Below, piece after piece: positions 9,798 through 56,500 of a stretch of DNA of 64,000 nt. The stretch spans positions 9,456 to 73,455 of the IMG/VR virus record IMGVR_UViG_3300032326_000853, one strand, 5' to 3'. The position numbers and the translations under genes were made by a program. Source of the DNA: a virus. A model generated the notes under the pieces. That model made no database searches, was not told where the DNA came from, and saw nothing but the letters and a program-made list of their open reading frames with translations. Positions within the stretch are counted from its first letter, which is position 1; every line of letters starts with the position of its first letter.

Positions 9798-9885
9798 AAG
9801 CGTATGTTTGATTTTAGATATTTGACGTTTGCTATTTGACTATTTTCGTTTCCCTTGCTTCGTGGCAATACTAAATATCTGTATG

Positions 9886-18412: not shown

Positions 18413-18562
18413 AATGTGCCCCAATTATACCAGTGTTTTAAACAACATATAAACGGCTAAATATTGGGCAAACTACAGGGAGTTTCTCTGTAGTTAAGCT
18501 AAATATATACGAGCCGAATGCTCACAACTTAGCTGAATGCTAATAAAAAGGAAATTTTTGTC

Positions 18563-23573: not shown

Positions 23574-23708
23574 TAATAAATTTTATAATTTTATAACAAT
23601 GCAATAAAGGGTAGTGGTAAGTGAAAGTCTAATACTGAAGTTGCTTGTAGTACTAGAGCAGGTATATTGATGCGTTCCCCCACTGTAAGTACTATACAGG
23701 GAACAAAT

Positions 23709-29824: not shown

Positions 29825-30501
29825 TGCCCAAACAAGCAGTTGACCTTAGAGAATGGGCCAGTCCCGTTGAAGAACAATGGCAACTGGGTAGTTGCACTGC
29901 ACAGGCAGTAATCGGTGCTTATGAATTATTGACTAAGATGCACTACCCAGACCAATTTGTTGATCTAAGTAGATTGTTTTTGTACTACAATGCTAGAAAA
30001 ATTGCAGGCGACGTAGAAGAAGATGTTGGGGCGTATGTTTCAACTGCTTTGACGGCAATTGAGTTATACGGACTTTGTAGGGAAGATCTATGGCCATATG
30101 ATGCTGGCCGATTCAAAGTTGAACCTGGATATAAATGCTATCGCGATGCCAAAATGCGATCTATAACCAACGTTCGTGAAGTTACTTCACATGACATGAT
30201 CATTGACATGCTTGATCGTCAGTATCCAGTTGTAGTTGGTGTTGCTGTTTATTCAGGATTTGACTCTATTGACAATCAAACAACAACTTTAAAAATGCCT
30301 ATGACTGCTGAGGAGCCCATTGGTAGTCATGCCATGTGCATTGTTGGATACAATGATGCCCGGCAAGCATTTTTAGTAAGAAACAGCTTTGGTGACGACT
30401 GGGGCGAAGGCGGATATTTTTGGGTTCCCTTTGTGTACGCAGACGAAAATTTTTCAGATATGTGGACTTTTGATGTGAAATTAAACGGTATAAACAGTTA
30501 A
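29824..30501 (+). CDS. Papain-like cysteine protease (peptidase C1 family)
   Basis: 'EEQWQLGSCTAQAV' (the QxxxGSCWA Cys motif). 'GSHAMCIVGYND' (His) and 'FLVRNSFGDDWGEGGYFWV' (the Asn-Ser-Trp-Gly motif). Confidence 0.65.
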   Translation: MPKQAVDLREWASPVEEQWQLGSCTAQAVIGAYELLTKMHYPDQFVDLSRLFLYYNARKIAGDVEEDVGAYVSTALTAIELYGLCREDLWPYDAGRFKVEPGYKCYRDAKMRSITNVREVTSHDMIIDMLDRQYPVVVGVAVYSGFDSIDNQTTTLKMPMTAEEPIGSHAMCIVGYNDARQAFLVRNSFGDDWGEGGYFWVPFVYADENFSDMWTFDVKLNGINS

Positions 30502-33231: not shown

Positions 33232-34455
33232 ATGCGTTTACGTGAACTATTATCAGAAGTCAAAATTGACAACAAAGACGGGGCAGGTGCAGTTCCTTTT
33301 AATCAAGACATTGATTACTTTGGACTACGCACCACAATGCGTCCAAGTACATTCTTGCGATTGGCTGCTCCGCTGGGACAAGAACACAGCGCCAAGCTAG
33401 AAAAATACATTGCTGACGGTGGTGCAATTGGCGCCCCATTCTTAGACATTAAAATCCCCCAGGAATGGGACGACGGCGACTTTTCTAAGCCTGCACAAGT
33501 TGCGGGACATGAAGGTCGCAATCGCATGACTGCTATTAAAAAGCTAGAAGGCGATGCGCCTGTTGAAGTACATATTTTACCACGTGGCGGATATCGTGCT
33601 AGAGACATTACTCCAGAATTCAAAGCCGCCCTGGCCAAGAGCTTGTATGCAGAAAAAAGTACATCGTTAGTGACAGGCCCGCTATTTGAAGATGAACTAG
33701 AAGAAGGATGGAAAGACACTATGGCCAACTTGGCCATTGCTGGTGGCATTGCTGCCGGTGGTATAGGAGGCATGGCTGCAAAACAGGCGGCGCAAGATTA
33801 CTTTAAAGAGCCTACTGCGGCAGTAGCTCAGGCAACAACAAAAGCACCAGAAGTTCCAAAGACATTTGCACAAGCCAAATCTGCACCAAGTGCGCCTGCT
33901 GCCGTTAAAGCAGAGCCCAAACCTGAAGTACAGAAAAAACTCAATGTACAACCTATTACTGGCAATCCTTTGGAAGCTACGTTATTAAAAGTTGCCAAAT
34001 CTTCTGGCCTACAAGGTTCCGAACTTGCGGCATTTATGGCTCAATGTGCTCATGAAACCTTGGACTTTAAACGTCTGGTAGAATTTGGCGGTAGCTTAGA
34101 CTTCCGCAAATATGATCCAAAATATGCACCCAAGAAAGCCAAGGCCCTAGGCAACAAGCAAGTGGGAGATGGTGCCAAATACAAAGGTCGTGGCTTTATT
34201 CAAATCACTGGCCGTTACAATTACAAACGTGCAGGGGAAGCACTGGGCTTAGATTTAGTAAATCATCCAGAATTAGCCGAAGATCCAGCAACAGCAGCCA
34301 AGATTGCTGTTTGGTTTTGGAAGCATAGAGTGCAACCCAACGTAGACAACTTTAAAAATACCACTGATGTTACCAAGCAAATTAACCCCGGCATGCGAGG
34401 ATTAGAACAGCGCAAGGATAACTTTGCTGATTACATGCAAGTTGCCATGCGATAA
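33232..34455 (+). CDS. Glycoside hydrolase family 19 (chitinase/lysozyme-like) peptidoglycan hydrolase. It has a 250-aa N-terminal extension and an internal Ala/Gly-rich hydrophobic segment.
   Basis: GH19 motifs 'FMAQCAHETLDF', 'YKGRGFIQITGRYNY', 'AVWFWKHR'. N-terminal MRLRELL motif. Segment 'MANLAIAGGIAAGGIGGMAAKQAA'. Confidence 0.7.
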   Translation: MRLRELLSEVKIDNKDGAGAVPFNQDIDYFGLRTTMRPSTFLRLAAPLGQEHSAKLEKYIADGGAIGAPFLDIKIPQEWDDGDFSKPAQVAGHEGRNRMTAIKKLEGDAPVEVHILPRGGYRARDITPEFKAALAKSLYAEKSTSLVTGPLFEDELEEGWKDTMANLAIAGGIAAGGIGGMAAKQAAQDYFKEPTAAVAQATTKAPEVPKTFAQAKSAPSAPAAVKAEPKPEVQKKLNVQPITGNPLEATLLKVAKSSGLQGSELAAFMAQCAHETLDFKRLVEFGGSLDFRKYDPKYAPKKAKALGNKQVGDGAKYKGRGFIQITGRYNYKRAGEALGLDLVNHPELAEDPATAAKIAVWFWKHRVQPNVDNFKNTTDVTKQINPGMRGLEQRKDNFADYMQVAMR

Positions 34456-34547: not shown

Positions 34548-34853
34548 ATGTTATCATTTTTAAAGAAGCTGTTTGGTTTTGGTAGCACACCAGCCTCAGA
34601 AGCACCATACAAGGTTGAAGTTACACAGCAAGGGGTTATTGCCGTAGGCGAGCCGCCAGCAACAGTAGCAATTCCAGTTGCAGGATTAATGTTGCCAGTT
34701 GAAGGTGCAGGCGCAGTTGAAGTTGTACCAGTTGCAGACGCTACAGTTCCAGTTGTTGCTGAAAAGAAGCCACGTGCCAAAAAGCCAGCCGCTGAAAAGA
34801 AACCAGCCGCTGAAAAGAAACCACGTGCCAAGAAAGCTCCCAAGGCTGAATAA
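34548..34853 (+). CDS. Small basic protein with histone-H1-like (KPAAEKK)n C-terminal repeats
   Basis: 'AEKKPRAKKPAAEKKPAAEKKPRAKKAPKAE'. AAAGGAAAAGAAATG RBS. Confidence 0.5.
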   Translation: MLSFLKKLFGFGSTPASEAPYKVEVTQQGVIAVGEPPATVAIPVAGLMLPVEGAGAVEVVPVADATVPVVAEKKPRAKKPAAEKKPAAEKKPRAKKAPKAE

Positions 34854-35668
34854 TGTTTTTGTCTGACATCACTCCACGTGTAACTGTATATGAATCCCTG
34901 CAACAGGTGAATGGCCGCTGGGCCCGCGTCAATACAGAAACAAATACCGTGGTAGAAATGTATCATGGAGCCAAGGATATTATTCTAGAGGGTGGCAATG
35001 TATTCAAAGATGCAGAAGGTAAGGAACTAACACAGCGTATCAATCAAGCTGATGTAGAACCAACTATTCGCTTCTTGGAAAAGATCACTGGTATCCCGCA
35101 TTTTGAACATGCACTAGGTACAACTGGCAAGACTCCCACAAGCGGAGACTTGGATATTGGTATTCCGCCTGGTATCACCAAAGAAGAATTGGTCAACAAA
35201 CTAAGTCAATGGTGCAGTCAACACGGTGAAGATTCCAAGGCCTTTATTAGAAAGTCTGGTATTAGCGTACACTTCAAAGCACCTATTGGTGGCAGTCCTG
35301 AGCGTGGTTATGTACAAACTGACTTTATGTTTGTGCCCAACTTAGACTTTGCAAAGTTTGCTATGGCAGCAGACCCACACAGTAAGTTCCGTGGCGCCCA
35401 TAAACAAATTTTGCTAAGTAGCATTGCTAAAGTAAAAGGCTATACTTGGAATCCAACAACCGGTCTCATTGATCGTGCCACTAAAAAATTAGTAGACAAT
35501 GGAGACAATCCAGATCATGTATCTGAATTGTTGTTTGGTCCAGGATTTGATCGTACTAGTCTGACCAGTGTTGAAGCTGTACTTAAAGCACTGGAAAATA
35601 ATCCCCAGCGTGAAGAGTTATTAGCCGATGCTAGAGAAACATTGGGCCGCGAAGGGGTTGAAATTTAA
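34853..35668 (+). CDS. Hypothetical protein, possible Pol-beta-superfamily nucleotidyltransferase fold
   Basis: 'LGTTGKTPTSGDLDIGI' resembles the hG[GS]x9-13DhDh signature. A possible third carboxylate lies in 'VQTDFMF'. Confidence 0.3.
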   Translation: MFLSDITPRVTVYESLQQVNGRWARVNTETNTVVEMYHGAKDIILEGGNVFKDAEGKELTQRINQADVEPTIRFLEKITGIPHFEHALGTTGKTPTSGDLDIGIPPGITKEELVNKLSQWCSQHGEDSKAFIRKSGISVHFKAPIGGSPERGYVQTDFMFVPNLDFAKFAMAADPHSKFRGAHKQILLSSIAKVKGYTWNPTTGLIDRATKKLVDNGDNPDHVSELLFGPGFDRTSLTSVEAVLKALENNPQREELLADARETLGREGVEI

Positions 35669-35669
35669 A

Positions 35670-37175
35670 ATGTTATTACGTCATATATTTGAAACTAGAA
35701 TTGAAGTACTAATCGAGGGCCGCGGTTTGGCTGCTCGACTACCTGGTGAGCAATTTAAAAATCCACAAGGTGATGTTATCACATTTCAAAGCCTAGACTT
35801 TTTCCCCGAGCGTGGTCAGTTTGCCAGTGCTGAAGAAATGCAAGTAGAAATTGATGCTCAAAAAGCTGGTAAAAATATTCATTGGACCAATAAGCAAAAT
35901 GCAGGTACCTTGGCATTTGCCATTGCTACATTTACAGATGCTGACAAAAAGGCCTATTACCTAGGTCGCTATTACAAAACAATCAGTGCTAACCGTATTC
36001 AAAACGATTGGCAACATACAGATATTCCAGGTGGCTTTAAGTACCAAAGCAAGTTGGGACAAAAAGAAAACACAGGCTACAAGCCAAGTGAGATCTTGAA
36101 ACAGTTCAAAGACAACACAGTAGATACCATTGCTAAACAAATTATCACTAAATTTGGACAAGGCAGTGACGAAGTTGTTGCGCTAAATGCGTTCTTGACT
36201 GCTAATAAGTTTCCTATTACGTTCCCCAAGGGCAACATTAACATGACTGCGTTCCGCGATTACTTCTGCGAAATGCTACAGCCAATGGCCTTGTTAATGG
36301 AAAAGCCTATTAAAGGTAATGCAGGCGAAGCCGCTGATATCTTCTTTGGTAGTGGTGGATACAAAGGCTGTACTGTTAGTTTCAATGCCGCAGTAAGTGG
36401 CGGATTGTACGACAGCTTGCTGGTCAGTCCCGAAGGCAAACAAATTAAGTTATCAAGTAAAGGTGCGTCTGGTGCAAGTGCTTCCGTTGTTAACTTGTTA
36501 AAGAGTATTAACGAATTAAAGGTTGCTCCTAAAGGACAAATCTTACTTGAAAAGCACAAAGTAGTTGTTGAAATCTTAAAAGATATTGACGCTAAAGGTC
36601 ACTTTGGTGCACCGCTAAAGTTAGCAGTAGACTACAAAATGATCACTGCTGATGACGCTACATTTGCAATGACATTAAAGAAGTACGGTCCCGATGATCA
36701 AATTGATTGGGCAGGACACTCTACACTAGAAGCATTGTACAACGGCCGCAAGGCACGTGACATGCGTGTTATTATTCCTATGGAACACATGATCAGTGCT
36801 ATTGCTTATAAAGTTGCTGACTATGTAAATGAAAATACCAATTTTGGTAAAGCGGCTTCTGACATTCTAAACCACTCTGCCTTGGTGCAGATGTACACAA
36901 ATTGTTCCGAAACCAAGGATACAATCAGCATTGATAGCTTTAATGCTGTATACCCAAGTGAAACCGTTACAGGCGTTTTACTTGATGCCAGTAAGGCTTA
37001 CATGAGCACACAGGGTAAAGGCAACTTTACATTCAAGATTCTTAAGAATGGTGCCAAAGAAGTTGATGTACCAGACGAAGCAGAAGAGCCAGTAGCGGCT
37101 CCAAAGCCTAAGAAGATTGCGCCCAAAGACAAGCCTGCTATGACTACTACTAGCACTACTCGCCAGCTAAAATAA
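35670..37175 (+). CDS. Hypothetical protein
   Basis: 515-aa ORF in the track (35628). Start likely at the ATG at 35670 right after the upstream stop. Confidence 0.45.
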   Translation: MLLRHIFETRIEVLIEGRGLAARLPGEQFKNPQGDVITFQSLDFFPERGQFASAEEMQVEIDAQKAGKNIHWTNKQNAGTLAFAIATFTDADKKAYYLGRYYKTISANRIQNDWQHTDIPGGFKYQSKLGQKENTGYKPSEILKQFKDNTVDTIAKQIITKFGQGSDEVVALNAFLTANKFPITFPKGNINMTAFRDYFCEMLQPMALLMEKPIKGNAGEAADIFFGSGGYKGCTVSFNAAVSGGLYDSLLVSPEGKQIKLSSKGASGASASVVNLLKSINELKVAPKGQILLEKHKVVVEILKDIDAKGHFGAPLKLAVDYKMITADDATFAMTLKKYGPDDQIDWAGHSTLEALYNGRKARDMRVIIPMEHMISAIAYKVADYVNENTNFGKAASDILNHSALVQMYTNCSETKDTISIDSFNAVYPSETVTGVLLDASKAYMSTQGKGNFTFKILKNGAKEVDVPDEAEEPVAAPKPKKIAPKDKPAMTTTSTTRQLK

Positions 37176-37251
37176 CATTAAGTAGCACTTTTTTAATTTT
37201 TAAAGAACTTTTAAATACTAAAGTAGAGAATTTGGTCTCTACTTTAGTAAT

Positions 37252-37731
37252 ATGAAAAAGATAACTTTAGCCTTAGCAGTGGTATTAAGTGGAGCCCCGA
37301 ATGCCGCTGAATTACAACACAATTTCAATAGTCCAGCCTTTAGTGGTGTGGGCTATTCGTCACATGTTCTAACTTTAAAACAGTTAGAAGATCAACAAAA
37401 AGACAAAAACAGACAGGCAGCAGAAGCATTAAAAGCTGCCGCTGAACGTGAGGCCGCAAATACGCCGCAAGCACGTTTTAAAGCCAGTATGGAAACTCGC
37501 ATTTATAGTGAGTTAGCCAAACGCATTAGCGATAGTCTATTTGGTTCTAGTCCAAATGCACCAACATGTACTCCAACATCAAGTGGTGGCCCATGTGGCG
37601 ATATTGACATTGGCGGTCAAAATATTACTTGGAGAATCCAAGGTACAAATATCATTGTTAGAATTTCAGAAATTGCAAATCCTAACAACTATACAGAATT
37701 AGTAATGCCTTATGCGGCATTTAACATCTAA
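37252..37731 (+). CDS. csgF: CsgF-like curli assembly protein (secreted)
   Basis: Signal peptide MKKITLALAVVLSGAPNAA. 'ELQHNFNSPAFSGVGYSSHVLTLKQLEDQ' parallels E. coli CsgF '[28 protein letters not shown]'. Size 159 aa. Confidence 0.45.
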   Translation: MKKITLALAVVLSGAPNAAELQHNFNSPAFSGVGYSSHVLTLKQLEDQQKDKNRQAAEALKAAAEREAANTPQARFKASMETRIYSELAKRISDSLFGSSPNAPTCTPTSSGGPCGDIDIGGQNITWRIQGTNIIVRISEIANPNNYTELVMPYAAFNI

Positions 37732-37741
37732 GGAAATAAAC

Positions 37742-38623
37742 ATGAAAAAAACAACATTATCCTTAGCAATATCAGCAGTAATTCTACTGTCAGGTTGTGC
37801 CACAGGTTCTGCTATACGTGAAAAAGCCACTGGCAAACAATTTGATGAGCCAGTAGTTGAGCAAAATGCATTTTTAAAAAATCAATCAGACAAGTTACTA
37901 CCACCTTCAACAGGTCCAATTCCAGTTGCTGTTTATGGATTCCAAGACAAGACTGGTCAGCGTAAGAGTATTCCTAACATTGCCAGCTTATCAAGTGCAG
38001 TTACACAAGGTGCCGAAAGCTACTTGATCAAGGCCTTACAAGACGTTGGTCAAGCCCGTTGGTTTACAGTGCTAGAGCGTGTGGGTCTAGACAACTTGAT
38101 CAAAGAGCGTCAAATGATTCGTCAAGCACGTGAGCAATATCAGGGCAAAGATGCAAAGCCATTGAACCCTATGATGTTTGCTGGCATCATTGTCGAAGGC
38201 GGCATTATTGGTTATGACAGCAATACACTAACAGGCGGATCTGGTGTTCGTTTGTTTGGCATTGGTGCAACTACTCAGTATCAAAGCGACACAGTTACAG
38301 TTAACCTACGTACAGTCAGCGTAAGCACAGGCGAAGTGTTAACCAGCGTAACAGTCACTAAAACAGTATTAAGCTATATGGACAAGTTTGGCGTATTAAA
38401 ATTTGTTGACAGCGGTACACAAAGTGTAGAAGCTGAAACAGGCGCCAGCATTAACGAAAGTATCAATAAGGCGGTAAATTTAGCTGTTCAAGCCGCTGTA
38501 GTAAACACAATTCACGAAGGTGCTCGTAAAGGACACTGGAGTTTTAAAGAAGATAAGCCAGCTAACCCAACTGTAGTAGTTCCAGCAGTTGAAGAGGTCA
38601 AGGGAGGCGCGACTGCACAATAA
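37742..38623 (+). CDS. csgG: CsgG curli secretion channel lipoprotein
   Basis: Lipobox LLSGCAT. 'VAVYGFQDKTGQ', 'VTQGAESYLIKALQDVGQARWFTVLERVGLDNLIKERQMIRQA' and 'IIVEGGIIGYDSNTLTGGSGVRLFGIGATTQYQSDTVTVNLRTVSVSTGEVLTSVTVTKTVLSY' match E. coli CsgG blocks closely. Confidence 0.85.
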   Translation: MKKTTLSLAISAVILLSGCATGSAIREKATGKQFDEPVVEQNAFLKNQSDKLLPPSTGPIPVAVYGFQDKTGQRKSIPNIASLSSAVTQGAESYLIKALQDVGQARWFTVLERVGLDNLIKERQMIRQAREQYQGKDAKPLNPMMFAGIIVEGGIIGYDSNTLTGGSGVRLFGIGATTQYQSDTVTVNLRTVSVSTGEVLTSVTVTKTVLSYMDKFGVLKFVDSGTQSVEAETGASINESINKAVNLAVQAAVVNTIHEGARKGHWSFKEDKPANPTVVVPAVEEVKGGATAQ

Positions 38624-38770
38624 GTTTAAGAAAAACCGTGCATAGATCTTGCTTGTACAGTATGTAGGTCTTGGAAAAACTTACACTCTCTGGCAAGATC
38701 ATAGAGAGTTAATTAACGGGATAAATCCCAAGGAGCTAGGCAGAGAAGAATAATCTGTTTAGGTTTTAAA

Positions 38771-39568
38771 ATGAATAGAAGTATAACAAACGTTTGCTTG
38801 CTGACAGTGGCAATGATGGCAACCAGCACAGCATGGGCGCAGGCTGCAACAGGACCCAACAAGGTCTACATTGAGCAAATTGGTAACAGCAACACAGTTA
38901 CTATTCAACAAGTAGGTGGTACTAACAACGTCGGTGGCGTTGCATTAAGTACACCAACCAGCGTTAGCGCAAGCGGCATTACTACATTTACACCAGCCGC
39001 CCCAAGTTCTTCAAACTATGCCACTATCACTGGTAGCAGTAACACAGTTGCGCTAACACAAACTGGTAACGGCAACAGTGCTCAGTATGACATGCAAGGC
39101 AACAACAACGTTTATACCAGCACTGTAACTGGTCACAGCAACATGACCAGCTTGACAATTGGTGATTCAAACAACGCAAGTAACTTGCGTAACATAGTAA
39201 CAGAAACAATCACTGGTGATACTAACTTGATTATTCAACAGTTAGTTGGTAGCGATATTACAAGTACCACTGCTGTCACAGGTAATTTAAACCAAATCAC
39301 TAAAGAATTAAAAAGCTCAAACGGTACAAGTGACATTGAAATCACTGGCAACAGCAACGTGTTAAACATTCAACAAGTTGATGCCGCAGGTGCTAACGGT
39401 CACTACTTGAAGCAAGTTATTGCTGGTAGCTTTAACAGCATCACAACTCAACAGCAAGGTACTAATGACACCACTGTTGATATCCGTGCAACAGGAAGCA
39501 ACAATACAATCACTGTAAGAACAAGTAGTAGCAGTATTGTAAATCCTGGTACAGCAATTGCGAGATAA
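38771..39568 (+). CDS. Curlin-repeat (CsgA/CsgB-like) secreted amyloid subunit
   Basis: Signal peptide. Imperfect repeats 'N.V.I.Q.G..N...' e.g. 'SNTVALTQTGNGNSAQYDMQGNNN' vs CsgA 'SIDLTQRGFGNSATLDQWNGKNS'. Confidence 0.6.
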   Translation: MNRSITNVCLLTVAMMATSTAWAQAATGPNKVYIEQIGNSNTVTIQQVGGTNNVGGVALSTPTSVSASGITTFTPAAPSSSNYATITGSSNTVALTQTGNGNSAQYDMQGNNNVYTSTVTGHSNMTSLTIGDSNNASNLRNIVTETITGDTNLIIQQLVGSDITSTTAVTGNLNQITKELKSSNGTSDIEITGNSNVLNIQQVDAAGANGHYLKQVIAGSFNSITTQQQGTNDTTVDIRATGSNNTITVRTSSSSIVNPGTAIAR

Positions 39569-39573
39569 AATCA

Positions 39574-40680
39574 ATGTGGCGTGTGCTTTTAGCCACACTT
39601 TTAACGTTAACCAATACTACCATTTTTGCCAGTGGTAGTATTGGCGTTGTGTCCGATAACAAAGGAACACAATGTGAAGTGCAACGTGGCAAGACAAAAA
39701 CCTCAGGCATAAAGGGTGCTAGTATCGAGAGCATGGATACCTACCTAACACAGGCCTGTGCCAGTAATATTACTTTTCGAGACGATACCAAGGTAAAGAT
39801 TACAGAAAATTCAAAGTTGGTCATTGACGACTTTGTGTATGATCCCAAGCAAAGCGATGCAGGTAAATTGGCCATGAAAGTCACAATGGGCACTGTGCGC
39901 TATGCGTCAGGACAGATTGCCAAAAATAATCCACAACAAGTTGCTGTTAAGACACCAACAGCCAACATTGCTGTTCGTGGCACTGACTTTTCAATGACTG
40001 TTGATGAAACAGGGCAAAGCCTTGTTGTTCTACTTCCAAGTTGCAAAGAAGAAAGCGAGCAAAAGAAATACGAGTTAGAAGAAAACCGTTGTAAGGTGGG
40101 ACAGATTGCTGTATCTAATGCCGCTGGTACGGTTGTATTAGATAAGGCATTTGAAGCCACATACATCACCAGCGCAGACATACGACCAACTGTACCAACT
40201 GTTATTAACACAGTTGAAAGCAAAATCAACAACAACCTAATTATTGTGCGCCCACATGAAGTTGAACGTGCTATTCGCGACAACACTGGCCGTACAAAAA
40301 AGGAAGAGCTTGAAGCAGAAATTGAAGCTGAGGCTGCTAGACGTTTAGCGCAACGTGTTCGAGAATCAGGTGAAGAAATTGAACGTGCTAGACTACTGGC
40401 CATGGCTGAGGCTGCTGGTAAAACTGGGTGTAATGCCAGTACAAATATTTGCGTTACATGGGCCAATCCTGACGCACAAGAAATACAAAGTCGTGGTAAA
40501 GGCATAGCATTTAGAAGCAACGAAGATCACTACGCCGAAGTAAAGACACAGGGTTACAGTAGCAACACTGCCATCACAATTGTGCATAACGATGCCAGCG
40601 CCAGCGAGCTAATTGGTGCTGGTGGCGGAGGTGGCAATAGTGTGTATATCAAACAAAACCTTGGAGTACTGCGTAGATGA
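39574..40680 (+). CDS. Secreted FecR-domain protein with C-terminal coiled coil
   Basis: Signal peptide MWRVLLATLLTLTNTTIFA. 'VAVKTPTANIAVRGTDFSMTVDETGQSLVVLLPS' fits the FecR beta-sandwich consensus. Confidence 0.4.
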   Translation: MWRVLLATLLTLTNTTIFASGSIGVVSDNKGTQCEVQRGKTKTSGIKGASIESMDTYLTQACASNITFRDDTKVKITENSKLVIDDFVYDPKQSDAGKLAMKVTMGTVRYASGQIAKNNPQQVAVKTPTANIAVRGTDFSMTVDETGQSLVVLLPSCKEESEQKKYELEENRCKVGQIAVSNAAGTVVLDKAFEATYITSADIRPTVPTVINTVESKINNNLIIVRPHEVERAIRDNTGRTKKEELEAEIEAEAARRLAQRVRESGEEIERARLLAMAEAAGKTGCNASTNICVTWANPDAQEIQSRGKGIAFRSNEDHYAEVKTQGYSSNTAITIVHNDASASELIGAGGGGGNSVYIKQNLGVLRR

Positions 40681-42590
40681 AAAAGTTTTTACTGCCCTTA
40701 TTGTTATTGTGTTCAACTGCATTTGCACAGACAAACTATAACTCTATTGCCACTGCTTACGTTACTACCACTATCAGTCAAAACGTAGTGTTCAATAGTG
40801 CTATGCAACAGGGTGGAACATTTACTTTTAGTGCATTGGCACACAATGGTGGTGGCCGTGCTGGACAAGCAGACACAGCCAACGTAAAGATACAATTCTA
40901 TGCGGCCAACGGTTCGTTGATATCCACAGTAAACTCAAATTACTCTAGTAATTTACCAAACCCAAATCAGGCTCCTGGTAATCCCTGGGCAGATCCCAGT
41001 GTACCTTGGACAGTATTAACAGTTAGTTCAACCAACTGCGGCGGAAGTTGTGCCAACGTTGCGTATGCCACAGTCAGTATGTATGGTATTGATGGCAGTT
41101 ACTGGGCTGGCGACTACGGCCCTTGGTATCGTGCTCCTACACTACAACTTAACGGTGGCGGCAACTTATTATATAACCCAGAGTTCGGTCCTGCTTATGG
41201 ATACAATGCTCAAGGATGGACAACAAACCCAGGCATGGGTGCTTGCCAAGGAGCGTGGGGTGGTAGTAATCCATGTATTGTAAACAGTTCAGGTACACCC
41301 GGTTCAAGTACAGCAGGCCTTGTTGCCAACGAGAACGGTGGTGGTCCCAGCACAACTGGTGGTACTACTAGCGGTCAAGCTGGTGGATACAACAGCACCA
41401 TGAGTGTGACCAATGCAGGGCCCGGAACAGGAACACCACAGACTCCTCCTGGACCTCCACCACCTGCTCCTACAGCAATTTACATGGATAACTCCACAGT
41501 AAAGATTATACGAGCAATACCAACCACTAACAACAGTCCTGGTGGTGAGGGTCCTAACAATGCGTTTGATAATAACCCAAATACAAAATATCTAAACTTT
41601 GATAAGAAGAACGCCGGCGTTACTGTTCAATTAAACACAGGTAAGGTTGTTACAGGATTTACTGTTACAACTGCAAATGACTTCAGTGGTCGCGATCCAA
41701 CAAGTTATAAACTGTATGGCAGTAACGATGGTTCAACATGGACTTTGATTAAACAAGATACCATTTCACTAAGTGAAAATCGTTTTACAACATCATCGAC
41801 TATTAGTGTTGCAAACACAACAGCGTATGCCTATTACTTTATGTTGTTCCCAACAACCAAAGCTGGAGATGGCTGCGGCTTAAACTGCGATAGTATGCAG
41901 GTTGCTGAAATTACATATTACTACGATGCAAATAGTACAACAACATCAACTGCCTCAAGCAACACCATTGTTGACCCTGTAACGGCTGCCAATAACACAC
42001 TATGCTGTGGAGGCAGTGCGGCTGCATTCAATGCTGATACTACCAATGCCGCAAAGGTATCAGCGTTTGTGTCCCGTACTACAAACGACAGTCGTGTTTA
42101 TATAGAACAAATTGGCAACATGAATACTATCACTGTTAACCAGTCTGGTACTAGACAAAACTATGCAGGATATACCGGCAACGGCTCTTCAAATGACATT
42201 GAAATTGTACAAAGTGGTACAGCATCTACGCAAGTAAATTATGCAAACGTTAATGTAACAGGTAACAGTAACACAGTTAATGTCACTCAACAAAGCACAG
42301 GTGGTGCAAAAGGTGCATTTGTTAATATTCAAAACAACAACAATTCTGTCATAATCCAACAAAAAGATTCAGGCAGTCACTGGGCTGATGTTACAGTAAG
42401 CGGCGGTAATAAAAACGTTGACGTGCTTCAACAAGGCAGTGCTAGCCACATGGCTCGTATTAACCTAAGTGGCTTGCCACAGGATTTAAGTTTAACACAA
42501 AGCGGTAGTACACAACAATACTACTCAATCACCAGCAATTGTGCCACAGCAGGCGGTTGCGCCAAGATCACTGTCAATCAAGGACAGTAG
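40677..42590 (+). CDS. Large secreted protein: N-terminal beta domain, F5/8-type C (discoidin) domain, C-terminal curlin repeats
   Basis: Signal peptide MKKFLLPLLLLCSTAFA. Discoidin block 'NAFDNNPNTKYLNF...VTVQLNTGKVVTGFTVTTANDFSGRDPTSYKLYGSNDGSTWTLI'. C-terminal 'RVYIEQIGNMNTITVNQSG...NSNTVNVTQQSTGG...NSVIIQQKDSG' repeats like 38771..39568. Confidence 0.6.
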   Translation: MKKFLLPLLLLCSTAFAQTNYNSIATAYVTTTISQNVVFNSAMQQGGTFTFSALAHNGGGRAGQADTANVKIQFYAANGSLISTVNSNYSSNLPNPNQAPGNPWADPSVPWTVLTVSSTNCGGSCANVAYATVSMYGIDGSYWAGDYGPWYRAPTLQLNGGGNLLYNPEFGPAYGYNAQGWTTNPGMGACQGAWGGSNPCIVNSSGTPGSSTAGLVANENGGGPSTTGGTTSGQAGGYNSTMSVTNAGPGTGTPQTPPGPPPPAPTAIYMDNSTVKIIRAIPTTNNSPGGEGPNNAFDNNPNTKYLNFDKKNAGVTVQLNTGKVVTGFTVTTANDFSGRDPTSYKLYGSNDGSTWTLIKQDTISLSENRFTTSSTISVANTTAYAYYFMLFPTTKAGDGCGLNCDSMQVAEITYYYDANSTTTSTASSNTIVDPVTAANNTLCCGGSAAAFNADTTNAAKVSAFVSRTTNDSRVYIEQIGNMNTITVNQSGTRQNYAGYTGNGSSNDIEIVQSGTASTQVNYANVNVTGNSNTVNVTQQSTGGAKGAFVNIQNNNNSVIIQQKDSGSHWADVTVSGGNKNVDVLQQGSASHMARINLSGLPQDLSLTQSGSTQQYYSITSNCATAGGCAKITVNQGQ

Positions 42591-42617
42591 TTCTAGCTAT
42601 CGTATAAATACGTTACT

Positions 42618-44612
42618 ATGAAATTACGTGACGTTAGCCCCCAAATAACCCTATTAGCTGAGCAACAGCTAGACGAAATTAACATGAGCCCGTCAAGCCT
42701 AAAGCAATTGGCTTCGAGAATCAATGCCCGTGCTGGTATGGAATTTGAAATGATTGTACCGGGCGTAAGTGAGGAAGATGGTGATTTAGAACCCAACTAC
42801 GGCGACGATCAACGCACACGTAGCTTTAGTGATATCGAAGACTTCTTTAACGATGGTGACTACAATAGCCGTAACGATGTTCAACGCTTGATCCAAAAAC
42901 TACAAGAAGCGTATTGGGAATGGGAAATGGAAAAGATCGATAACGATTGGAGCAATGACGGCGAAGATTACATTCGAGACTACATTAACAACAATGAGTG
43001 GAACCAAGACGACAAAATTCGCGAACACTTAGAAGCCATGGGCTTAGATGAAGATGCCATTGAAGCCGCAATTGAAGCTGGCAACAACGCACCAATTTAC
43101 ACAAAGTCTAGCGATCTTAAAGCCGCTCGTGAAGCAGACGAAAACTACAACAATTGGGTAGAAGCAGACCGTGCGGCTGATGATGAACTTGATGAATTAG
43201 TGTCAGAAACATGGAGCGAACAAAGCGGTGTTTATGAAGAAGCATTGGACCAGTATCGTGAAGAAAATGCAGGCACACACGATGAAGATGACTTCTTAGA
43301 AGACAATGGCCTACGTTACATGAGCGATATTTCAAATGAATATGACATCAGCTGGCCTTACTGGAGTAGTCCCGGTGGCGGTGAAGTCAATGCAGAAAGT
43401 GTTGCCGAAGACTTTGCCCAAGCAGTTGGTCGTACAGTAAAAGCCAGTGGCTCTTACCATTCGGGCAGTGTAGCTCGTCCTGACGCCAGTAACTCACACT
43501 ATGTTGTAGAACCTGACGGTAGCTTGGACCCGGACGACAGCAATGACGGTGGCTTAGAGTTTGTAAGCCCAGCATTGCCCATTGGCGAACTGCTAAGTGA
43601 CTTAGACAAAGTTGCCAAGTGGGCCGGCACGTATGGTTGCTACACTAATGAGTCAACTGGCTTGCACATCAACGTCAGCGTTGAAGGTTGGAGCGGTGAC
43701 ATGGGCAAGTTAGATTATGTCAAGTTGGCATTATTAATGGGTGACAACTATATCCTAGACAAGTTTGGTCGTGCTGGCAATACCTATTGCAAAAGTGCAA
43801 TGAACGAAATTAAAAATCGTGTAACACAACGTCCAGAAGATGCAGCCGCACTGCTAGAGAAAATGAAGTCTGGCCTAGACAGTCTTGCAAGTAAAGCAAT
43901 TCACTCGGGCGTTACCAACAAGTACACCAGTATCAATACCAAGAGTGGTTATATTGAATTCCGCTCACCTGGTGGCGACTGGTTAGGCGAGTATGCAGCC
44001 GATCCAGGATCAATTACCAATACCCTGTTGCGATTTGTTGTAGCATTAGATGCCGCAGTAGACGCAGAAAAATACAAACAAGAATACTTGAAAAAGTTGT
44101 ATGCAATCTTACAACCTAAAACTCACAACGACACTATGGCTTACTTTGCACAGTATGCCGCAGGTCAAATGCCCAAGGCCGCACTAAAGAGTTTTATTCG
44201 TCAGGCACAATTAGAGCGTCAAGGTAAGAAACCGCCGCCAGAACAAAAAGAACCAAATTGGTATATCTCAGACAAAAACACTGGACAAATAATTCAGAAG
44301 TACTATGCTGACAATGCCAGTGATGCTTATGAATACCTACAGCGTTGGAAGGCACAAAACGGCGGTGGTGATCACTTACAGTATGGTAAGATAATGCCGG
44401 GACAAGAACCTGGACAAACAGCCACGCAACGAACAGGTGGTAACGAGTGGACTGGACAATGGCTAATTAAAGACGGCAGTGGTCGAGTACTACATAGTTT
44501 TGGCGGTATAGGAAACAGCCAAAGCGATGCAAATCGTTTTGCAACTCGCTGGTTAGCACAACAAGGTTACAGTTATGGAACTGAAATTGAAGTAGTTCCA
44601 GAAATGAGATAA
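42618..44612 (+). CDS. Acidic N-terminal domain fused to an amidoligase-like domain (Amidoligase_2, GS-like fold; tentative)
   Basis: 'GGLEFVSPALPIGEL...GCYTNESTGLHINVSV' resembles the E-x-VSP and tGlHVHv signature blocks of phage amidoligases. N-terminus MKLRDV. Confidence 0.4.
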   Translation: MKLRDVSPQITLLAEQQLDEINMSPSSLKQLASRINARAGMEFEMIVPGVSEEDGDLEPNYGDDQRTRSFSDIEDFFNDGDYNSRNDVQRLIQKLQEAYWEWEMEKIDNDWSNDGEDYIRDYINNNEWNQDDKIREHLEAMGLDEDAIEAAIEAGNNAPIYTKSSDLKAAREADENYNNWVEADRAADDELDELVSETWSEQSGVYEEALDQYREENAGTHDEDDFLEDNGLRYMSDISNEYDISWPYWSSPGGGEVNAESVAEDFAQAVGRTVKASGSYHSGSVARPDASNSHYVVEPDGSLDPDDSNDGGLEFVSPALPIGELLSDLDKVAKWAGTYGCYTNESTGLHINVSVEGWSGDMGKLDYVKLALLMGDNYILDKFGRAGNTYCKSAMNEIKNRVTQRPEDAAALLEKMKSGLDSLASKAIHSGVTNKYTSINTKSGYIEFRSPGGDWLGEYAADPGSITNTLLRFVVALDAAVDAEKYKQEYLKKLYAILQPKTHNDTMAYFAQYAAGQMPKAALKSFIRQAQLERQGKKPPPEQKEPNWYISDKNTGQIIQKYYADNASDAYEYLQRWKAQNGGGDHLQYGKIMPGQEPGQTATQRTGGNEWTGQWLIKDGSGRVLHSFGGIGNSQSDANRFATRWLAQQGYSYGTEIEVVPEMR

Positions 44613-44613
44613 T

Positions 44614-45876
44614 ATGAAAATACAAGATTTAATTGAAGGTTGCAAACACGGAGAATACTATTGCTCCACAGACAAAAAGTGGAAGTGCCGTACTGGTCCT
44701 AAGCAAAGTAGAAAAGTATCCGAAGGTGACTTAAACGAATTTGCACCTGGTGCCGGCGATGGTGATGGCGACGAAGATCCATACCGATATCCCAAGCCAG
44801 AGTCGTATCGTCGTAGTATAGATTTCTTTGGAAAGTTTGAAGCTGATCATTTTGATCGAGAAGATATGAATGACGCCACTGGTGAATTCAAAGGCTATTG
44901 GGGCAAAACACAAATTGCCTATTTCAAGTTTGATAATCCAGCAAAGACTGGCAGTGATGATCCAGGCATGGGCTGGTACTATGAGCCCAACGACATCAGT
45001 GACGACGACAGTGACACTGGTGCAACACCTGCTGTTGATACATCTGCACAACGCAAGCAACAAGAATTAGGCATGATTGATGCGTTTTTAAAGTCAGGGA
45101 AAAAGCCTAATCCGGGCAGTCCAATACATGCCCTAATGAAGAAACATGGTCTGGCAGAAGGCAGTTTAGAAGAAATAGACCGTAGAGGATTCTTAAAAGG
45201 CCTTGGTGCGGCAGTGGCGGGTGCAGCCGGAGTCAGCAACGCCAAAGCGTCTGAAAAGAAGTTTTCAGACTTTATTACCGATCCTGCCGATAAAGAAAAA
45301 TATATAGAGTTAAGAAAAAAAGCCGATCGTATTTTGGCAATATCTATGGTAAATTCATCACTTAAAGTGGCCGCCTATGCCGAAATGGCCAAACTAAAGG
45401 ATTTTAAGAAAGAACTGGCCAAGAAATATAATATTGACATCAATCTTAAAGAAGAAGATATGGCGGAAGCACATCCTAACAGCAAAATCTACGACAAGTG
45501 CTGGGATGGTTATAAGAAAGTCCCGGGCAAAAAGCGTGGTGAAAAAGGCTCATGTGTAGAAGAAACTTATGATGGTGATGAGTTCTTTGAAGCCTACGGT
45601 GTATTATGGTTCAACGAAGATGAGCAGTTAGACGAAGCCGAATACCAAGGACGTAGTGTTCCACTAGGTAAGCCCATGCAAGGCGATGTTAAAAAGTTCA
45701 AAGTATATGTAAAAGATCCTTCAACTGGCAATGTTAAAAAAGTAAACTTTGGCGATCCAGACATGAAGATCAGAAAGTCTAACCCTGCGGCTCGTCGTAG
45801 CTTCCGTGCTAGACACAACTGTGACAACCCAGGTCCAAGAACCAAAGCACGTTACTGGTCCTGCCGTAAGTGGTGA
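44614..45876 (+). CDS. Hypothetical protein with 'LNEFAPGAGDGDGDED' motif and an internal twin-arginine-like signal (RRGFLKGLGAAVAGAAGVSNAKA)
   Basis: Internal Met 'MKKHGLAEGSLEEIDRRGFLKG...' would give a canonical Tat signal peptide. C-terminal Lys-rich region. Confidence 0.45.
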   Translation: MKIQDLIEGCKHGEYYCSTDKKWKCRTGPKQSRKVSEGDLNEFAPGAGDGDGDEDPYRYPKPESYRRSIDFFGKFEADHFDREDMNDATGEFKGYWGKTQIAYFKFDNPAKTGSDDPGMGWYYEPNDISDDDSDTGATPAVDTSAQRKQQELGMIDAFLKSGKKPNPGSPIHALMKKHGLAEGSLEEIDRRGFLKGLGAAVAGAAGVSNAKASEKKFSDFITDPADKEKYIELRKKADRILAISMVNSSLKVAAYAEMAKLKDFKKELAKKYNIDINLKEEDMAEAHPNSKIYDKCWDGYKKVPGKKRGEKGSCVEETYDGDEFFEAYGVLWFNEDEQLDEAEYQGRSVPLGKPMQGDVKKFKVYVKDPSTGNVKKVNFGDPDMKIRKSNPAARRSFRARHNCDNPGPRTKARYWSCRKW

Positions 45877-45895: not shown

Positions 45896-45929
45896 TTGAC
45901 ACAGCCGTTAAAATGTGTTAAATTATAGT
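45896..45929 (+). promoter_or_regulatory. Promoter TTGACA-17-TAAATT(ATAGT) abutting the cyclase start codon
   Basis: ttgaca at 45896-901. ATG at 45930 with no SD, which suggests a short-leader or leaderless transcript. Confidence 0.45.
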
Positions 45930-47966
45930 ATGAAAAACTTTATTCCCGGACCATGGAGTATTGCATGGGTGGCTGTTACAGCCGTTGTACTTGTTGCACT
46001 TAAAATCTCCAACCCCTCACCTGTTGAAAGCATTCAACTAAAAGGCTTTGATGCCTTGCTGGCCACTGACACACCTGTTGATTCCGATCGTGTTGTCATT
46101 GTTGACATTGGCGAGCCCTCCATTGAACGACTAGGGCAGTGGCCTTGGCCTCGCAAGGATCTTGCTCGTGCAATTGATCGTATTCAAGAACTAGGGGCAT
46201 CAGCTATTGTAGTTCCCGTTATCATGAGCGAAGCAGATCGCCTGGGTGGTGATCGAGACTTAGTCAATACACTGAATCATACCAACAGTGTTATTACACA
46301 AGCGCCTACTACACAAAACAAACGTCCCGATGCTGTTCGTCGTGGTGTTGCTGTAATTGGTGGCGACCCGCTTGAGTGGACATTTACTTGGCCCGGTGCG
46401 CTGAGTCCATACAAGCCCTTGGCTGATGCGGCCTCTGGTGTTGGTACCAGTGTAGTTGCTCCTGAGGTAGACGGTGTTGTTCGCCGCATGCCCTTGATTG
46501 TTGCAGTGGGAGATCAAATTTACCCCAGCTTGCCCATTGAAGCACTTCGTGTTGCTACGGGACAAAAGAGTTATCAAGTCAAAATGAGTTCAGCAGGTAT
46601 TGAAAAAGTTCGTATTGCTGGACAACCAGTTGTTACCACAGACGAACATGCTAGAATTTGGCTACGCTGGAACAAGAACTTTGCACGTTACGAGCTATCA
46701 GAGATATCAAAGAAAAAAGTAGACCTTAAGGGCAAAGTTGTAGTACTGGGTCTTGGTGTAGAAGGCTTGGGCAGTATCATTGCCACACCACAAGGCGAAC
46801 GTTGGGCACATGACATCCAAGCACAAACTGTACAAACATTATTAGACGGTGACAGCCCAGTACGTCCTGCATTCGCCCGTAGTGTCGAGCTATTAGCAAT
46901 TGTACTGATAGCGTTTGTACTAATTTTCGTTATGCCACGCTTGCCATTCTGGGCAGTGGGGGCGGCCCTATTTGTCACTGTAGGCGCTGTCATTGGTGGT
47001 AGCTTTTATGCATGGCAACAGTACAGTCAGTTATGGGACATTTACTTGTTGACCTTTGCGGCTGTGGTGTTATATGGACATGCATTGTTTGCCCGCTTTG
47101 TAATTGAATTCAAACAAAAGCAACAGATCAAGAAACAGTTTGGCACATACTTGAGCCCTGCATTGGTAGCCAAGCTACAAAAGAATCCAGAAATGTTACA
47201 GCTGGGCGGTGACGAACGTGAACTATCAATTATGTTTACAGACGTTCGTGGCTTTACTACTATTAGTGAACACTATGGTAAGGACGTACAAGGACTTACC
47301 AAGATCATGAATCGTTACATGACTGCAATGACCAAGAAGATCATTGACAATAACGGCACACTTGACAAGTATATTGGCGATGCACAAATGGCATTCTGGA
47401 ATGCTCCAGTTGACGAAGCACGTCACGCACATATGGCTGTCAAGACAGCACTTGAAATGATGGGAAGTTTAGATGCATTTAATGCGGAAATTACAGCAGA
47501 AGGCGTTCCTCCCTTTGGTATGGGCCTGGGAATTAATACTGCCGCCGTTGTGGTGGGCAATATGGGCAGTGATCAACGGTTTGACTATACTTGTCTTGGC
47601 GACGGTGTTAATTTGGCGAGCCGACTCGAGGGCCAGTCTAAGCCGTATGGTGTCAAGATTGTTTTAGGACAACGTACAGCAGAATTGGTTCGAGACGAAT
47701 ACTCTGTAGTAGAGTTAGACTGTATTGCAGTTAAGGGTAAAACACAAGGCGTTAAGATTTATACGCTAGGTGAAACCAATACAACATTGCATGACACGTA
47801 CTTGACTGCATACTATCGCGGCGACTGGACTAGAGCCATCAAACAGTGCGAAAAGCTAATTGCCTTGGACAATGAACTCAAAGCATATTATGAAGCTATG
47901 TTAGAGCGCATGAACGAAGGGTTACCTCCAAATTGGGATGGTACCTATCGTGCCACAAGTAAATGA
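45930..47966 (+). CDS. Class III adenylate/guanylate cyclase with N-terminal membrane-anchored CHASE2 sensor domain
   Basis: 'LSIMFTDVRGFTTISE', 'KYIGDAQMAFWNAP', 'GLGINTAAVVVGNMGSDQRFDYTCLGDGVNLASRLEG' are cyclase catalytic blocks. N-terminal TM, about 300-aa extracytoplasmic domain, then two TMs (CHASE2 layout). Confidence 0.8.
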   Translation: MKNFIPGPWSIAWVAVTAVVLVALKISNPSPVESIQLKGFDALLATDTPVDSDRVVIVDIGEPSIERLGQWPWPRKDLARAIDRIQELGASAIVVPVIMSEADRLGGDRDLVNTLNHTNSVITQAPTTQNKRPDAVRRGVAVIGGDPLEWTFTWPGALSPYKPLADAASGVGTSVVAPEVDGVVRRMPLIVAVGDQIYPSLPIEALRVATGQKSYQVKMSSAGIEKVRIAGQPVVTTDEHARIWLRWNKNFARYELSEISKKKVDLKGKVVVLGLGVEGLGSIIATPQGERWAHDIQAQTVQTLLDGDSPVRPAFARSVELLAIVLIAFVLIFVMPRLPFWAVGAALFVTVGAVIGGSFYAWQQYSQLWDIYLLTFAAVVLYGHALFARFVIEFKQKQQIKKQFGTYLSPALVAKLQKNPEMLQLGGDERELSIMFTDVRGFTTISEHYGKDVQGLTKIMNRYMTAMTKKIIDNNGTLDKYIGDAQMAFWNAPVDEARHAHMAVKTALEMMGSLDAFNAEITAEGVPPFGMGLGINTAAVVVGNMGSDQRFDYTCLGDGVNLASRLEGQSKPYGVKIVLGQRTAELVRDEYSVVELDCIAVKGKTQGVKIYTLGETNTTLHDTYLTAYYRGDWTRAIKQCEKLIALDNELKAYYEAMLERMNEGLPPNWDGTYRATSK

Positions 47967-56447: not shown

Positions 56448-56475
56448 AATTGCCGCGTAATGCGGCAATTTCTTT
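56448..56475 (+). terminator. Terminator hairpin AATTGCCGC-GTAAT-GCGGCAATT followed by TCTTT
   Basis: 9-bp perfect stem after the stop of the giant gene. Confidence 0.6.
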
Positions 56476-56500
56476 GACTACAGCTTGTATAAGTACACGC

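Follow-up and report, generated by a model that had tools for sequence, protein, structure and literature searches.

What could a curli-type secretion system be doing in a virus? The question is raised by a 64,000-nucleotide stretch of the IMG/VR virus record IMGVR_UViG_3300032326_000853 (positions 9,456 to 73,455 of the record; hereafter the window), in which an earlier note, made from the sequence alone, had singled out five consecutive genes for signal-peptide proteins as a cluster for the secretion of functional amyloid. An open reading frame (ORF) check places the five genes at positions 37252-42590, co-directional and all on the + strand, and Pfam, family profiles, and structures bear out each of the proposed identities, confirming that the genes form a real curli-type (type VIII) secretion module: a CsgG channel, a CsgF protein, and putatively secreted subunits built from a curlin-repeat beta-solenoid are all encoded. 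The earlier note ended the module at 42590; it includes a sixth conserved member downstream, a CHASE2-domain adenylate cyclase. Our best explanation, which we consider probable, is that this phage-carried type VIII secretion system (T8SS) produces lectin-decorated, curli-like fibres on the infected cell and is joined to an arm that signals from the envelope to cyclic AMP (cAMP). The six genes are:

37252 to 37731, + strand: CsgF-like protein of 159 residues with a Sec signal peptide (Pfam CsgF)
37742 to 38623, + strand (ORF opens at 37712): CsgG, outer-membrane lipoprotein channel (Pfam CsgG)
38771 to 39568, + strand: Cur1, curlin-repeat subunit of 265 residues; signal peptide, about 17 N-x-psi-x-psi-x-Q-x-G-type strand units
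39574 to 40680, + strand: secreted FecR-fold protein of 368 residues with a signal peptide (Pfam FecR)
40677 to 42590, + strand: Cur2, lectin-headed curlin subunit of 637 residues with a signal peptide
45915 to 47966, + strand: membrane adenylate/guanylate cyclase of 683 residues with a CHASE2 domain (Pfam CHASE2, Guanylate_cyc)

A tblastn search of 50,697 phage records with CsgG returned Pelagibacter phage HTVC008M and four Methylophilales Melnitz phages at 45-49% identity; their records annotate CsgF, CsgG, a curlin-repeat protein, a product labelled FecR-domain or hypothetical, another labelled second curlin or hypothetical, and an adenylate cyclase (HTVC008M gp014-019, Melnitz gp99-104). 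Every module protein of the window has a counterpart in HTVC008M and Melnitz, in the same order and with 31-49% identity (tblastn), the cyclase of the window being displaced by an insertion, and the order CsgF-CsgG-Cur1-FecR-Cur2-cyclase is found in these two cultured phages and in nearly all of the approximately 46 IMG/VR loci covering the module. The window therefore encodes a variant of the known viral T8SS of pelagiphages (HTVC008M, Melnitz, and podoviruses of the HTVC023P type), sharing its genes and their order, as well as the absence of CsgC, CsgD, and CsgE. What is new is the discoidin plus beta-sandwich head of Cur2, the insertion that splits off the cyclase, and the distinct, probably jumbo, phage lineage.

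The statement in the earlier note that a virus-carried T8SS had not been characterised holds for experiments only, as such modules have been reported and analysed bioinformatically, in the HTVC008M annotation (Zhao 2013) and in three papers. Zaragoza-Solas et al. (2020) described CsgF and CsgG in pelagimyophages and proposed a role in uptake or "sibling capture" (PMC7029224). Buchholz et al. (2022) called csgA and csgB missing and proposed a repurposed pore that times lysis (PMC9004378). Wittmers et al. (2022) described the full set, with CsgF, CsgG, CsgA/B, FecR, a further CsgA/B, and the cyclase, from pelagiphages of podo- and myoviral type, whose T8SS versions are expressed in metatranscriptomes; they placed its origin near the Alphaproteobacteria and estimated viral curli modules at about 0.1% of assembled ocean viral proteins (PMC9599517).

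Channel, curlin subunits, and lectin-type head

The CsgG channel recognized in the earlier note matches Pfam CsgG at E=8.5e-53 (179 bits) and E. coli CsgG 3x2r, over residues 10-271, at E=2.6e-52; the NCBIfam CsgG model scores 197 bits, under its equivalog cutoff of 505. Its start is probably at 37742, giving the N-terminus MKKTTLSLAISAVILLSGC (MKKTT...LLSGC), with a lipobox. Compared with KPYPA-SNFSTAV in E. coli, the constriction loop KSIPNIASLSSAV carries the changes Y51I, N55S, and F56L and has one extra residue; the properties of the channel may therefore differ.

The CsgF-like gene lies directly 5' of csgG in all loci and is the weakest of the gene calls, its product qualifying weakly as CsgF at 28.9 bits against a Pfam cutoff of 25.8 (E=1.5e-6). 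A phmmer search of the PDB with the single sequence returned nothing, and the best PDB match of the family profile, E. coli CsgF (6l7a_J), aligned at the N-terminal motif, is not significant (E=0.93). Within this motif (FNSPAFSG; FxxPxFxxxG), F25, P28, F30, and G34 are invariant in 23 orthologues, and we predict that the protein is an extracellular cap or nucleation factor with its N-terminus inserted into the CsgG barrel. A perfect 8-bp inverted repeat without a T-run (AGTAGAGA...TCTCTACT, 37225-37246) ends about 5 nt before the csgF start codon.

Signal-peptide-like N-termini, judged by eye and by hydropathy, are found on exactly the five proteins of the cluster and on none of the flanking proteins, and the cysteines of the mature proteins are paired. 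With the enterobacterial curli systems (csgBAC/csgDEFG of E. coli and Salmonella) the window shares the CsgG lipoprotein channel, the CsgF N-terminal motif, and two curlin subunits with Sec signals. Unlike them, it lacks CsgE, CsgC, and CsgD, has the altered constriction (Y51I, N55S, F56L) and subunits without an N22-like leader, endows one subunit with folded lectin domains, adds a FecR-fold protein and a CHASE2 cyclase, and carries all genes in one direction.

Among the Pfam families examined, CsgG, CsgF, FecR, and F5_F8_type_C gave significant matches, and Curlin_rpt stayed below its cutoff in both curlins (18.3 bits against 20.7 for Cur1), so that the curlin repeats reported in the earlier note had to be established with profiles and structures; several Cur2 orthologues exceed the Curlin_rpt cutoff outright. 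Cur1 by itself matches the solved curli subunit 8c50_A (phmmer E=4.7e-5), and a profile of 22 orthologues matches 8c50 at E=2.2e-9; this is the cryo-EM fibre structure of CsgA R15.5 from Pontibacter korlensis (PMC10192328). None of 2000 shuffles of Cur1 showed an 11-residue G/N periodicity as strong, and N, Q, or G occupies 21 of its 23 invariant positions (p~2e-11), at spacings that are multiples of 11. Outside the repeats, Cur1 has an insert of 35 residues and a C-terminal tail that is conserved. The Cur1 family aligns with the C-terminus of Cur2 at an hhalign probability of 98.6%, and the last 178 residues of Cur2, searched as a family profile, match 8c50 at E=7.9e-21 and E. coli CsgA 8enq at E=0.013. 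In Cur2, too, the invariant residues are nearly all curlin-repeat N, Q, and G and recur at multiples of 11. This conservation in both subunits suggests selection on the amyloid motif.

Cur2 was modelled by AlphaFold2 (AF2) as three folded parts joined by disordered linkers rich in Gly, Pro, Ser, and Thr:

Residues 28 to 184 (nt 40758 to 41228), + strand: N-terminal beta-sandwich (AF2 model)
Residues 186 to 261, + strand: first linker, Gly/Pro/Ser/Thr-rich and disordered
Residues 265 to 420 (nt 41469 to 41936), + strand: discoidin/CBM32 domain (Pfam and fold)
Between the discoidin/CBM32 domain and the curlin solenoid, + strand: second linker
Residues 471 to 635 (nt 42087 to 42581), + strand: curlin beta-solenoid

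The discoidin domain is supported both by its profile (Pfam F5/8 type C E=8.8e-13, residues 284-397) and by a CBM32-like beta-sandwich fold, and it resembles galactose-binding CBM32 modules. The discoidin-curlin fusion that the earlier note called unusual is thus real; it is, however, one case of a more general design. Across loci, the curlin tail of Cur2 is conserved and the head is mosaic, with both domains, one, or neither, and total lengths from 153 to 759 residues. By Pfam, the head contains PA14 in HTVC008M gp018 and in a further locus (L024), and discoidin in another (L041); HTVC008M accordingly shares a lectin-type head with the window, PA14 there and discoidin/CBM32 plus an extra beta-sandwich here. 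The second curlin would generally join an amyloid-forming tail to a swappable head that binds glycans, a design that, as far as our literature search showed, has apparently not been pointed out before; the terms PA14, lectin, and adhesin are not present in the text of PMC9599517. Engineered CsgA fusion fibres (for example VHH-curli display, PMC9477280) likewise fuse a binding domain to a curlin amyloid core; compared with these, Cur2 is natural and has an N-terminal head that is far larger, about 440 residues, with long disordered linkers.

Would the two curlins have to form fibres? They could instead be secreted as monomeric or short beta-solenoid adhesins or as a coat, for example one that masks receptors against superinfection. 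Many beta-solenoids are scaffolds and do not polymerise (Sleutel et al., PMC10192328), and the insert and non-repeat tail of Cur1, a disulfide-type loop at the very end of Cur2 (C622/C628), and the absence of clumping in Melnitz-infected cultures would all suit such proteins. We nevertheless find this unlikely, as the best matches of the curlins are the fibre-forming CsgA proteins 8c50 and 8enq, their first repeats are canonical N-x-V-x-I-x-Q-x-G units, and the nucleation factor CsgF has been kept.

It is slightly less likely still that the pore is all that matters. On the proposals of Buchholz et al. (PMC9004378, lysis timing) and Zaragoza-Solas et al. (PMC7029224, uptake), CsgG, with or without CsgF, would time lysis as a gated secretin or pinholin, or would serve as an uptake channel, and the curlin-like genes would be vestigial or irrelevant. 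Besides the Melnitz cultures, the constriction residues that depart from those of E. coli, the failure to find a CsgE gate, and the GH19 lysozyme-like genes of the window are compatible with this view. Its premise that csgA and csgB are missing is wrong, however: both curlins are present with signal peptides, and across thousands of sequences their amyloid-motif positions are the ones conserved. Vestigial genes would be neither so conserved nor found gaining swappable lectin heads, and the same set of six genes constitutes a cellular locus.

The FecR-like protein and the CHASE2 cyclase

Between the two curlin genes lies that of the FecR-like protein (Pfam FecR E=4.3e-10, 40.3 bits), whose parts are:

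Residues ~24 to 200: beta-rich FecR/PupR-like domain
Residues 228 to 280: long helix
C-terminus: beta region

The N-terminal domain is modelled with a predicted local distance difference test (pLDDT) score of 80-92, and Foldseek matches the model to the periplasmic C-terminal cell-surface-signalling domain of PupR (6ovk_R, E=2.3e-4, 163 columns) and also to 4m0h. A weak Foldseek match to 5ix9, a "Cell surface anchoring domain", was observed as well (E=0.047, 64 columns, 26% identity). What the window protein shares with FecR/PupR anti-sigma regulators is the periplasmic-domain fold; the anti-sigma domain, the transmembrane (TM) helix, and the sigma factor and TonB partners are theirs alone. 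In the window protein, the FecR domain starts near residue 24, with no anti-sigma domain and no 19-residue hydrophobic segment that could serve as a TM helix, and the module contains neither an extracytoplasmic function (ECF) sigma factor gene nor a TonB-dependent transducer gene. The protein is not an anti-sigma factor, and as it does not qualify as a FecR-type regulator, an iron-sensing role, like the published label "iron-dependent regulator", is unsupported.

The C-terminus of the protein is curlin-like in motif. G350, N355, I359, and Q361 never vary among 12 orthologues, those of Melnitz and HTVC008M included (GGN-S-V-Y-I-K-Q), and the terminal strand, N355-x-V-x-I359-x-Q361, fits the published curlin half-repeat N-x-psi-x-psi-x-Q (PMC10192328); bacterial versions end in a similar strand. 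The segment before this strand, DHYAEVKTQGYSSNTAITIVHN, resembles SHWADVTVSGGNKNVDVLQQ of Cur2. Alignment of the FecR family with the curlin families by hhalign was not significant (probabilities of 5% and 1%), and we therefore keep the curlin-like tail as a motif observation only. As a lead, one may consider docking of the tail on fibre ends or curlin subunits, which would suit a chaperone, an adaptor, or a sensor. The cysteine pairs of Cur2 are each no more than 10 residues apart, a spacing that would fit threading through a narrow channel; those of the FecR-like protein are more widely spaced, as might be expected of a periplasmic resident. Homologues of the FecR-like protein number more than 6,000 and those of Cur2 more than 1,400.

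The cyclase has strong matches to Pfam CHASE2 (E=2e-41, 142.7 bits) and Guanylate_cyc (E=1.1e-19, 71.2 bits). Hydropathy indicates a first TM segment at residues 14-32, a periplasmic CHASE2 domain, three TM segments within 323-397, and a cytoplasmic cyclase domain, an arrangement of periplasmic CHASE2 between TM segments with a class III cyclase domain that defines the CHASE2 sensor cyclases. It shares 41% identity with its Melnitz and HTVC008M counterparts, which likewise come after the module. Nearly every complete locus has a cyclase gene 3' of the module, and in bacterial loci this gene adjoins the FecR-like one; the CHASE2 cyclase is the sixth conserved member of the module.

Two precedents lead us to read the FecR-like protein and the cyclase as a putative envelope-to-cAMP signalling pair. 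Operons for a secreted FecR-domain protein and a CHASE2 kinase ("BiofilmReg") occur in Burkholderia and Pseudomonas (PMC5192318), and CHASE2 cyclases of S. meliloti are activated via NsrA, a beta-barrel protein of the outer membrane (PMC13001267). The periplasmic CHASE2 sensor and the link to biofilms or surfaces are common to Burkholderia BiofilmReg, P. aeruginosa, and S. meliloti, and a FecR-domain neighbour is present as in the window. In Burkholderia, the output is a histidine kinase and there is a LysM domain; in the window, the output is a cyclase, LysM is absent, and the pair resides within a phage-carried T8SS locus.

Cur2 and the cyclase are separated by an insertion of two genes (42618 to 45876, + strand):

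42618 to 44612, + strand: Amidoligase_2 protein
44614 to 45876, + strand: protein of 420 residues

The first (Pfam Amidoligase_2 E=8e-11) shares about 30% identity with proteins of two jumbo phages, Atu_ph07 and RsoM2USA. The insertion is found only in the nearest relatives of the window (L006, L007, L010, L016, L035, and L037) and is missing from HTVC008M, Melnitz, a relative on a 369,613-bp contig (L049), and most other loci, in which the cyclase follows Cur2 directly or after non-homologous sequence; it is not part of the ancestral module. The 420-residue protein has an internal motif resembling a TAT signal (residues 187-205) and a phrog_7595 C-terminus.

The genes that might be expected to assist or control the module were not detected. 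As the earlier note had observed for csgD and csgE in canonical form, no CsgE was detected, and a Pfam scan of the module and of neighbouring ORFs matched neither CsgE nor CsgC; CsgE, CsgC, and CsgD are likewise missing from published viral and alphaproteobacterial modules (PMC9599517). A histidine kinase before csgF, stated for podovirus versions of the viral T8SS, was not detected here, and the ORFs upstream (34853-35668 and 35628-37175) have no Pfam or PHROG match. Two genes farther upstream were considered as equivalents of csgD:

23667 to 24398, + strand: LuxR/GerE-type helix-turn-helix protein of 243 residues, N-terminal half uncharacterised
24391 to 25101, + strand: second, tandem LuxR/GerE-type helix-turn-helix protein of 236 residues, N-terminal half uncharacterised

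The NCBIfam CsgD model is among the best matches of both, at 51 and 41 bits, far under its cutoff of 250, and we rejected them as CsgD equivalents; they are generic proteins of the NarL/FixJ type. Scans for sigma-70 promoters and for terminators gave results at chance level, and Rfam gave zero matches. The T4-late-promoter-like octamer TATAAATA has a single copy in the window, at 42603-42610, immediately before the amidoligase start; with 3 copies expected by chance, this is not statistically meaningful.

Viral lineage and cellular counterpart

Does the module belong to a phage at all? In support of the virus-like context described in the earlier note, orthologous modules occur in the two cultured phages, and CsgG relatives (54-100% identity) are found on 46 IMG/VR contigs; the window itself has matches to collagen-like tail-fibre PHROGs, families known from PHROG only, two GH19 genes, coding almost entirely on one (+) strand, and no tRNA genes that we could find. 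Contigs of 206-340 kb carry close homologues of Cur2 and the FecR-like protein (82-88% identity), and further homologues are found on contigs of up to 369,613 bp. In the longest of these (L049, JGI 3300043530 Ga0480294_000005), the module is flanked by genes for S21, MazG, HSP70, HSP20, ClpS, heme oxygenase, and bilin reductase; the upstream flank of the window itself (L061, ENA ERZ28594089 scaffold_354) encodes DnaJ, peptide deformylase, a ClpA/B-type ATPase, and collagen-like fibre genes. The chaperone set of these relatives and flanks (HSP70/DnaK, DnaJ, HSP20, ClpS, ClpA/B-type ATPase; L049 1-6500, L061 1-4300) is notable for a phage. The best cultured matches of the amidoligase and of the Clp ATPase are in the jumbo phages Atu_ph07, Phosso, RsoM2USA, and PA5oct. 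For other window proteins, tblastn gave just trivial matches or matches to accessory genes of jumbo phages, and HSP70 matches were mostly to contaminated records.

The cultured carriers are not close relatives. A megablast search with 20 kb of the window found no DNA-level match among cultured phages, and the cultured T8SS phages have genomes of 141-147 kb and a GC content of 0.34-0.37, compared with contigs of 200-370 kb for the relatives of the window and a GC content of 0.43. The insertion between Cur2 and the cyclase, the lack of an upstream histidine kinase, and the lack of T4-core neighbours further distinguish the window from the pelagiphage T8SS. A pelagimyophage-like T4 phage with a conserved module context had been a candidate; it was dropped when tblastn, with a working positive control, found no homologue of the T4-core genes (gp32, gp59, gp33, PhoH, ThyX, baseplate hub) in the window or in 59 other sequences, a search that covers the module neighbourhood only. 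These comparisons suggest that the window derives from an uncultured, very abundant phage lineage that is distinct from the cultured module carriers and probably jumbo. The assignment to a phage is indirect, as no capsid, portal, or terminase gene was seen.

A cellular counterpart does exist. A scan of the FecR family, with one genome per species, found nine loci. In a Henriciella metagenome-assembled genome (MAG; L057, 396-kb contig) and in two Caulobacteraceae MAGs (L054 and L055), genes for CsgF, CsgG, curlin(s), a FecR-like protein, and a CHASE2 cyclase follow one another in this order. Flanking TonB-dependent receptors, fumarylacetoacetate hydrolase, acyl-CoA dehydrogenase, and methylmalonyl-CoA mutase indicate a chromosomal setting. 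These alphaproteobacterial loci have the same order as the window, at 27-47% identity, and a similar end strand in the FecR-like protein. In them, every curlin precedes the FecR-like gene, among these a 504-residue Henriciella curlin without a Pfam domain, and the GC content is 0.52-0.57; a lectin-headed curlin between FecR and cyclase was observed in phage-type loci only, and not in L054, L055, or L057. Judging from this synteny, the FecR-like protein and the cyclase are ancestral members of an alphaproteobacterial type of cellular locus, rather than, as the earlier note proposed for the FecR-domain protein, an occupant of the csgD/csgE position. Three further MAG contigs, from Flavobacteriaceae, Pelagibacter, and Legionellales bins (L051, L052, and L053), are short, have a low GC content (0.35-0.40), and carry the phage-type module; they may be phage contigs that were mis-binned.

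Given this counterpart, the window could in principle be a piece of a bacterial chromosome or a degraded prophage, with an ordinary curli operon that serves the bacterium. The chromosomal modules of Henriciella and the Caulobacteraceae, the absence of capsid and terminase genes from the window and its flanks, and the many metabolic genes (solute-binding proteins, TauD, radical SAM enzymes) would be in keeping with this, but we judge it very unlikely: coding is on one strand without tRNA genes, the tail-fibre and PHROG-only families and the two GH19 genes are present, the flanks resemble those of large phages (S21, peptide deformylase, MazG, HSP20, heme oxygenase, bilin reductase), with best cultured matches in jumbo phages, the 46 relatives are on IMG/VR viral contigs, and the GC content of the module equals that of the window (0.43) and not that of the bacterial loci. 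Least likely of all is that the curlins coat or extend the phage particle, an idea of the earlier note that found no support: beta-solenoids do occur in tail spikes (PMC10192328) and the window has tail-fibre-like genes, but the module lies outside any structural gene block and, because of the five Sec signal peptides and the dependence on an outer-membrane channel, its proteins would leave the cytoplasm, where virions assemble.

Other genes of the window, all on the + strand, include three for radical SAM proteins (9829-11472, with a weak B12-binding match; 56450-57991; and 61483-62943, below the Pfam cutoff) and three consecutive ones for periplasmic solute-binding proteins (16383-19507; two weakly TctC-like, one clearly of the DctP/TRAP type). 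The latter are followed by a gene for a TauD-family dioxygenase (20639-21592), unusual phage cargo of a nutrient-uptake type. The stretches 5808-7328, 29824-30501, 33232-34455, and 59477-60124 hold genes for a subtilase (S8), a papain-like C1 peptidase, and two lysozyme/chitinase-like GH19 proteins, of which one is extended at its N-terminus by 260 residues.

Proposed function on the infected cell

How might these parts work together? In the fibre reading that we prefer, all five proteins would be exported by the host Sec system during infection. CsgG would be lipidated and form the outer-membrane channel, which CsgF would cap via its N-terminal FxxPxF motif, yielding a complex for secretion and nucleation. 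Cur1 and Cur2 would be threaded through the channel unfolded and stack as beta-solenoid amyloid fibres on the infected cell, with the CBM32/discoidin domain and the second beta-sandwich of Cur2, on their flexible linkers, displayed as glycan-binding heads along the fibres or at their tips; the heads (PA14, discoidin, or none) would be exchanged between phage lineages. The secreted FecR-fold protein and the CHASE2 cyclase would signal from envelope to cytoplasm, with cAMP as output, and the FecR-like protein may, through its curlin-like C-terminal strand, take the place of the absent CsgE and CsgC as chaperone or adaptor. The six genes would have been acquired together from a chromosomal locus of the alphaproteobacterial type. 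Candidate benefits to the phage are the aggregation or capture of new hosts, attachment to particles, and shielding against superinfection.

Several observations weigh against this reading. Buchholz et al. saw no clumping in Melnitz-infected cultures (PMC9004378), and the literature holds no experiment on any viral T8SS. A channel of about 1 nm is narrow for the passage of a head of about 440 residues with cysteine pairs, and three of the constriction residues of that channel are unlike those of E. coli. CsgF barely exceeds the Pfam cutoff and has no significant match to a solved structure, and Curlin_rpt is sub-threshold in both window curlins. The curlin-like tail of the FecR-like protein is a short motif, with an hhalign probability of 5%, in a region that AF2 models with low confidence. 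Finally, the terminase or capsid gene that the earlier note proposed to seek elsewhere on the contig was found neither in the window nor in the 10-kb flanks, nor was a portal gene.

A more elaborate form of the fibre reading is doubtful, though conceivable. In this form, the fibres would be tipped with lectins, their glycan-binding heads (discoidin, PA14, or none) being exchanged between lineages so as to suit target surfaces, and the FecR-like protein would read the secretion or assembly of curlin, replace CsgE and CsgC, and gate the CHASE2 cyclase, amounting to a virus-encoded circuit from fibre to cAMP.

To specialists familiar with the pelagiphage papers, the module will not be a surprise; its analysis makes a long-open question of function more directly testable. 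The published proposals for the abundant viral curli modules conflict, favouring either a pore only or fibres. The presence of both curlins, conserved at their amyloid-motif positions, argues for fibres, and the exchangeable lectin head on one subunit points to a specific target. As the FecR-like protein and the cyclase appear to be ancestral parts of a cellular locus type, results from a tractable alphaproteobacterium would transfer to the phage module. The window also extends the viral T8SS past the phages of SAR11 and OM43 to a distinct, probably jumbo, lineage. If the more elaborate form is true, a circuit from fibre to cAMP would reprogram both the adhesion and the physiology of the infected cell.

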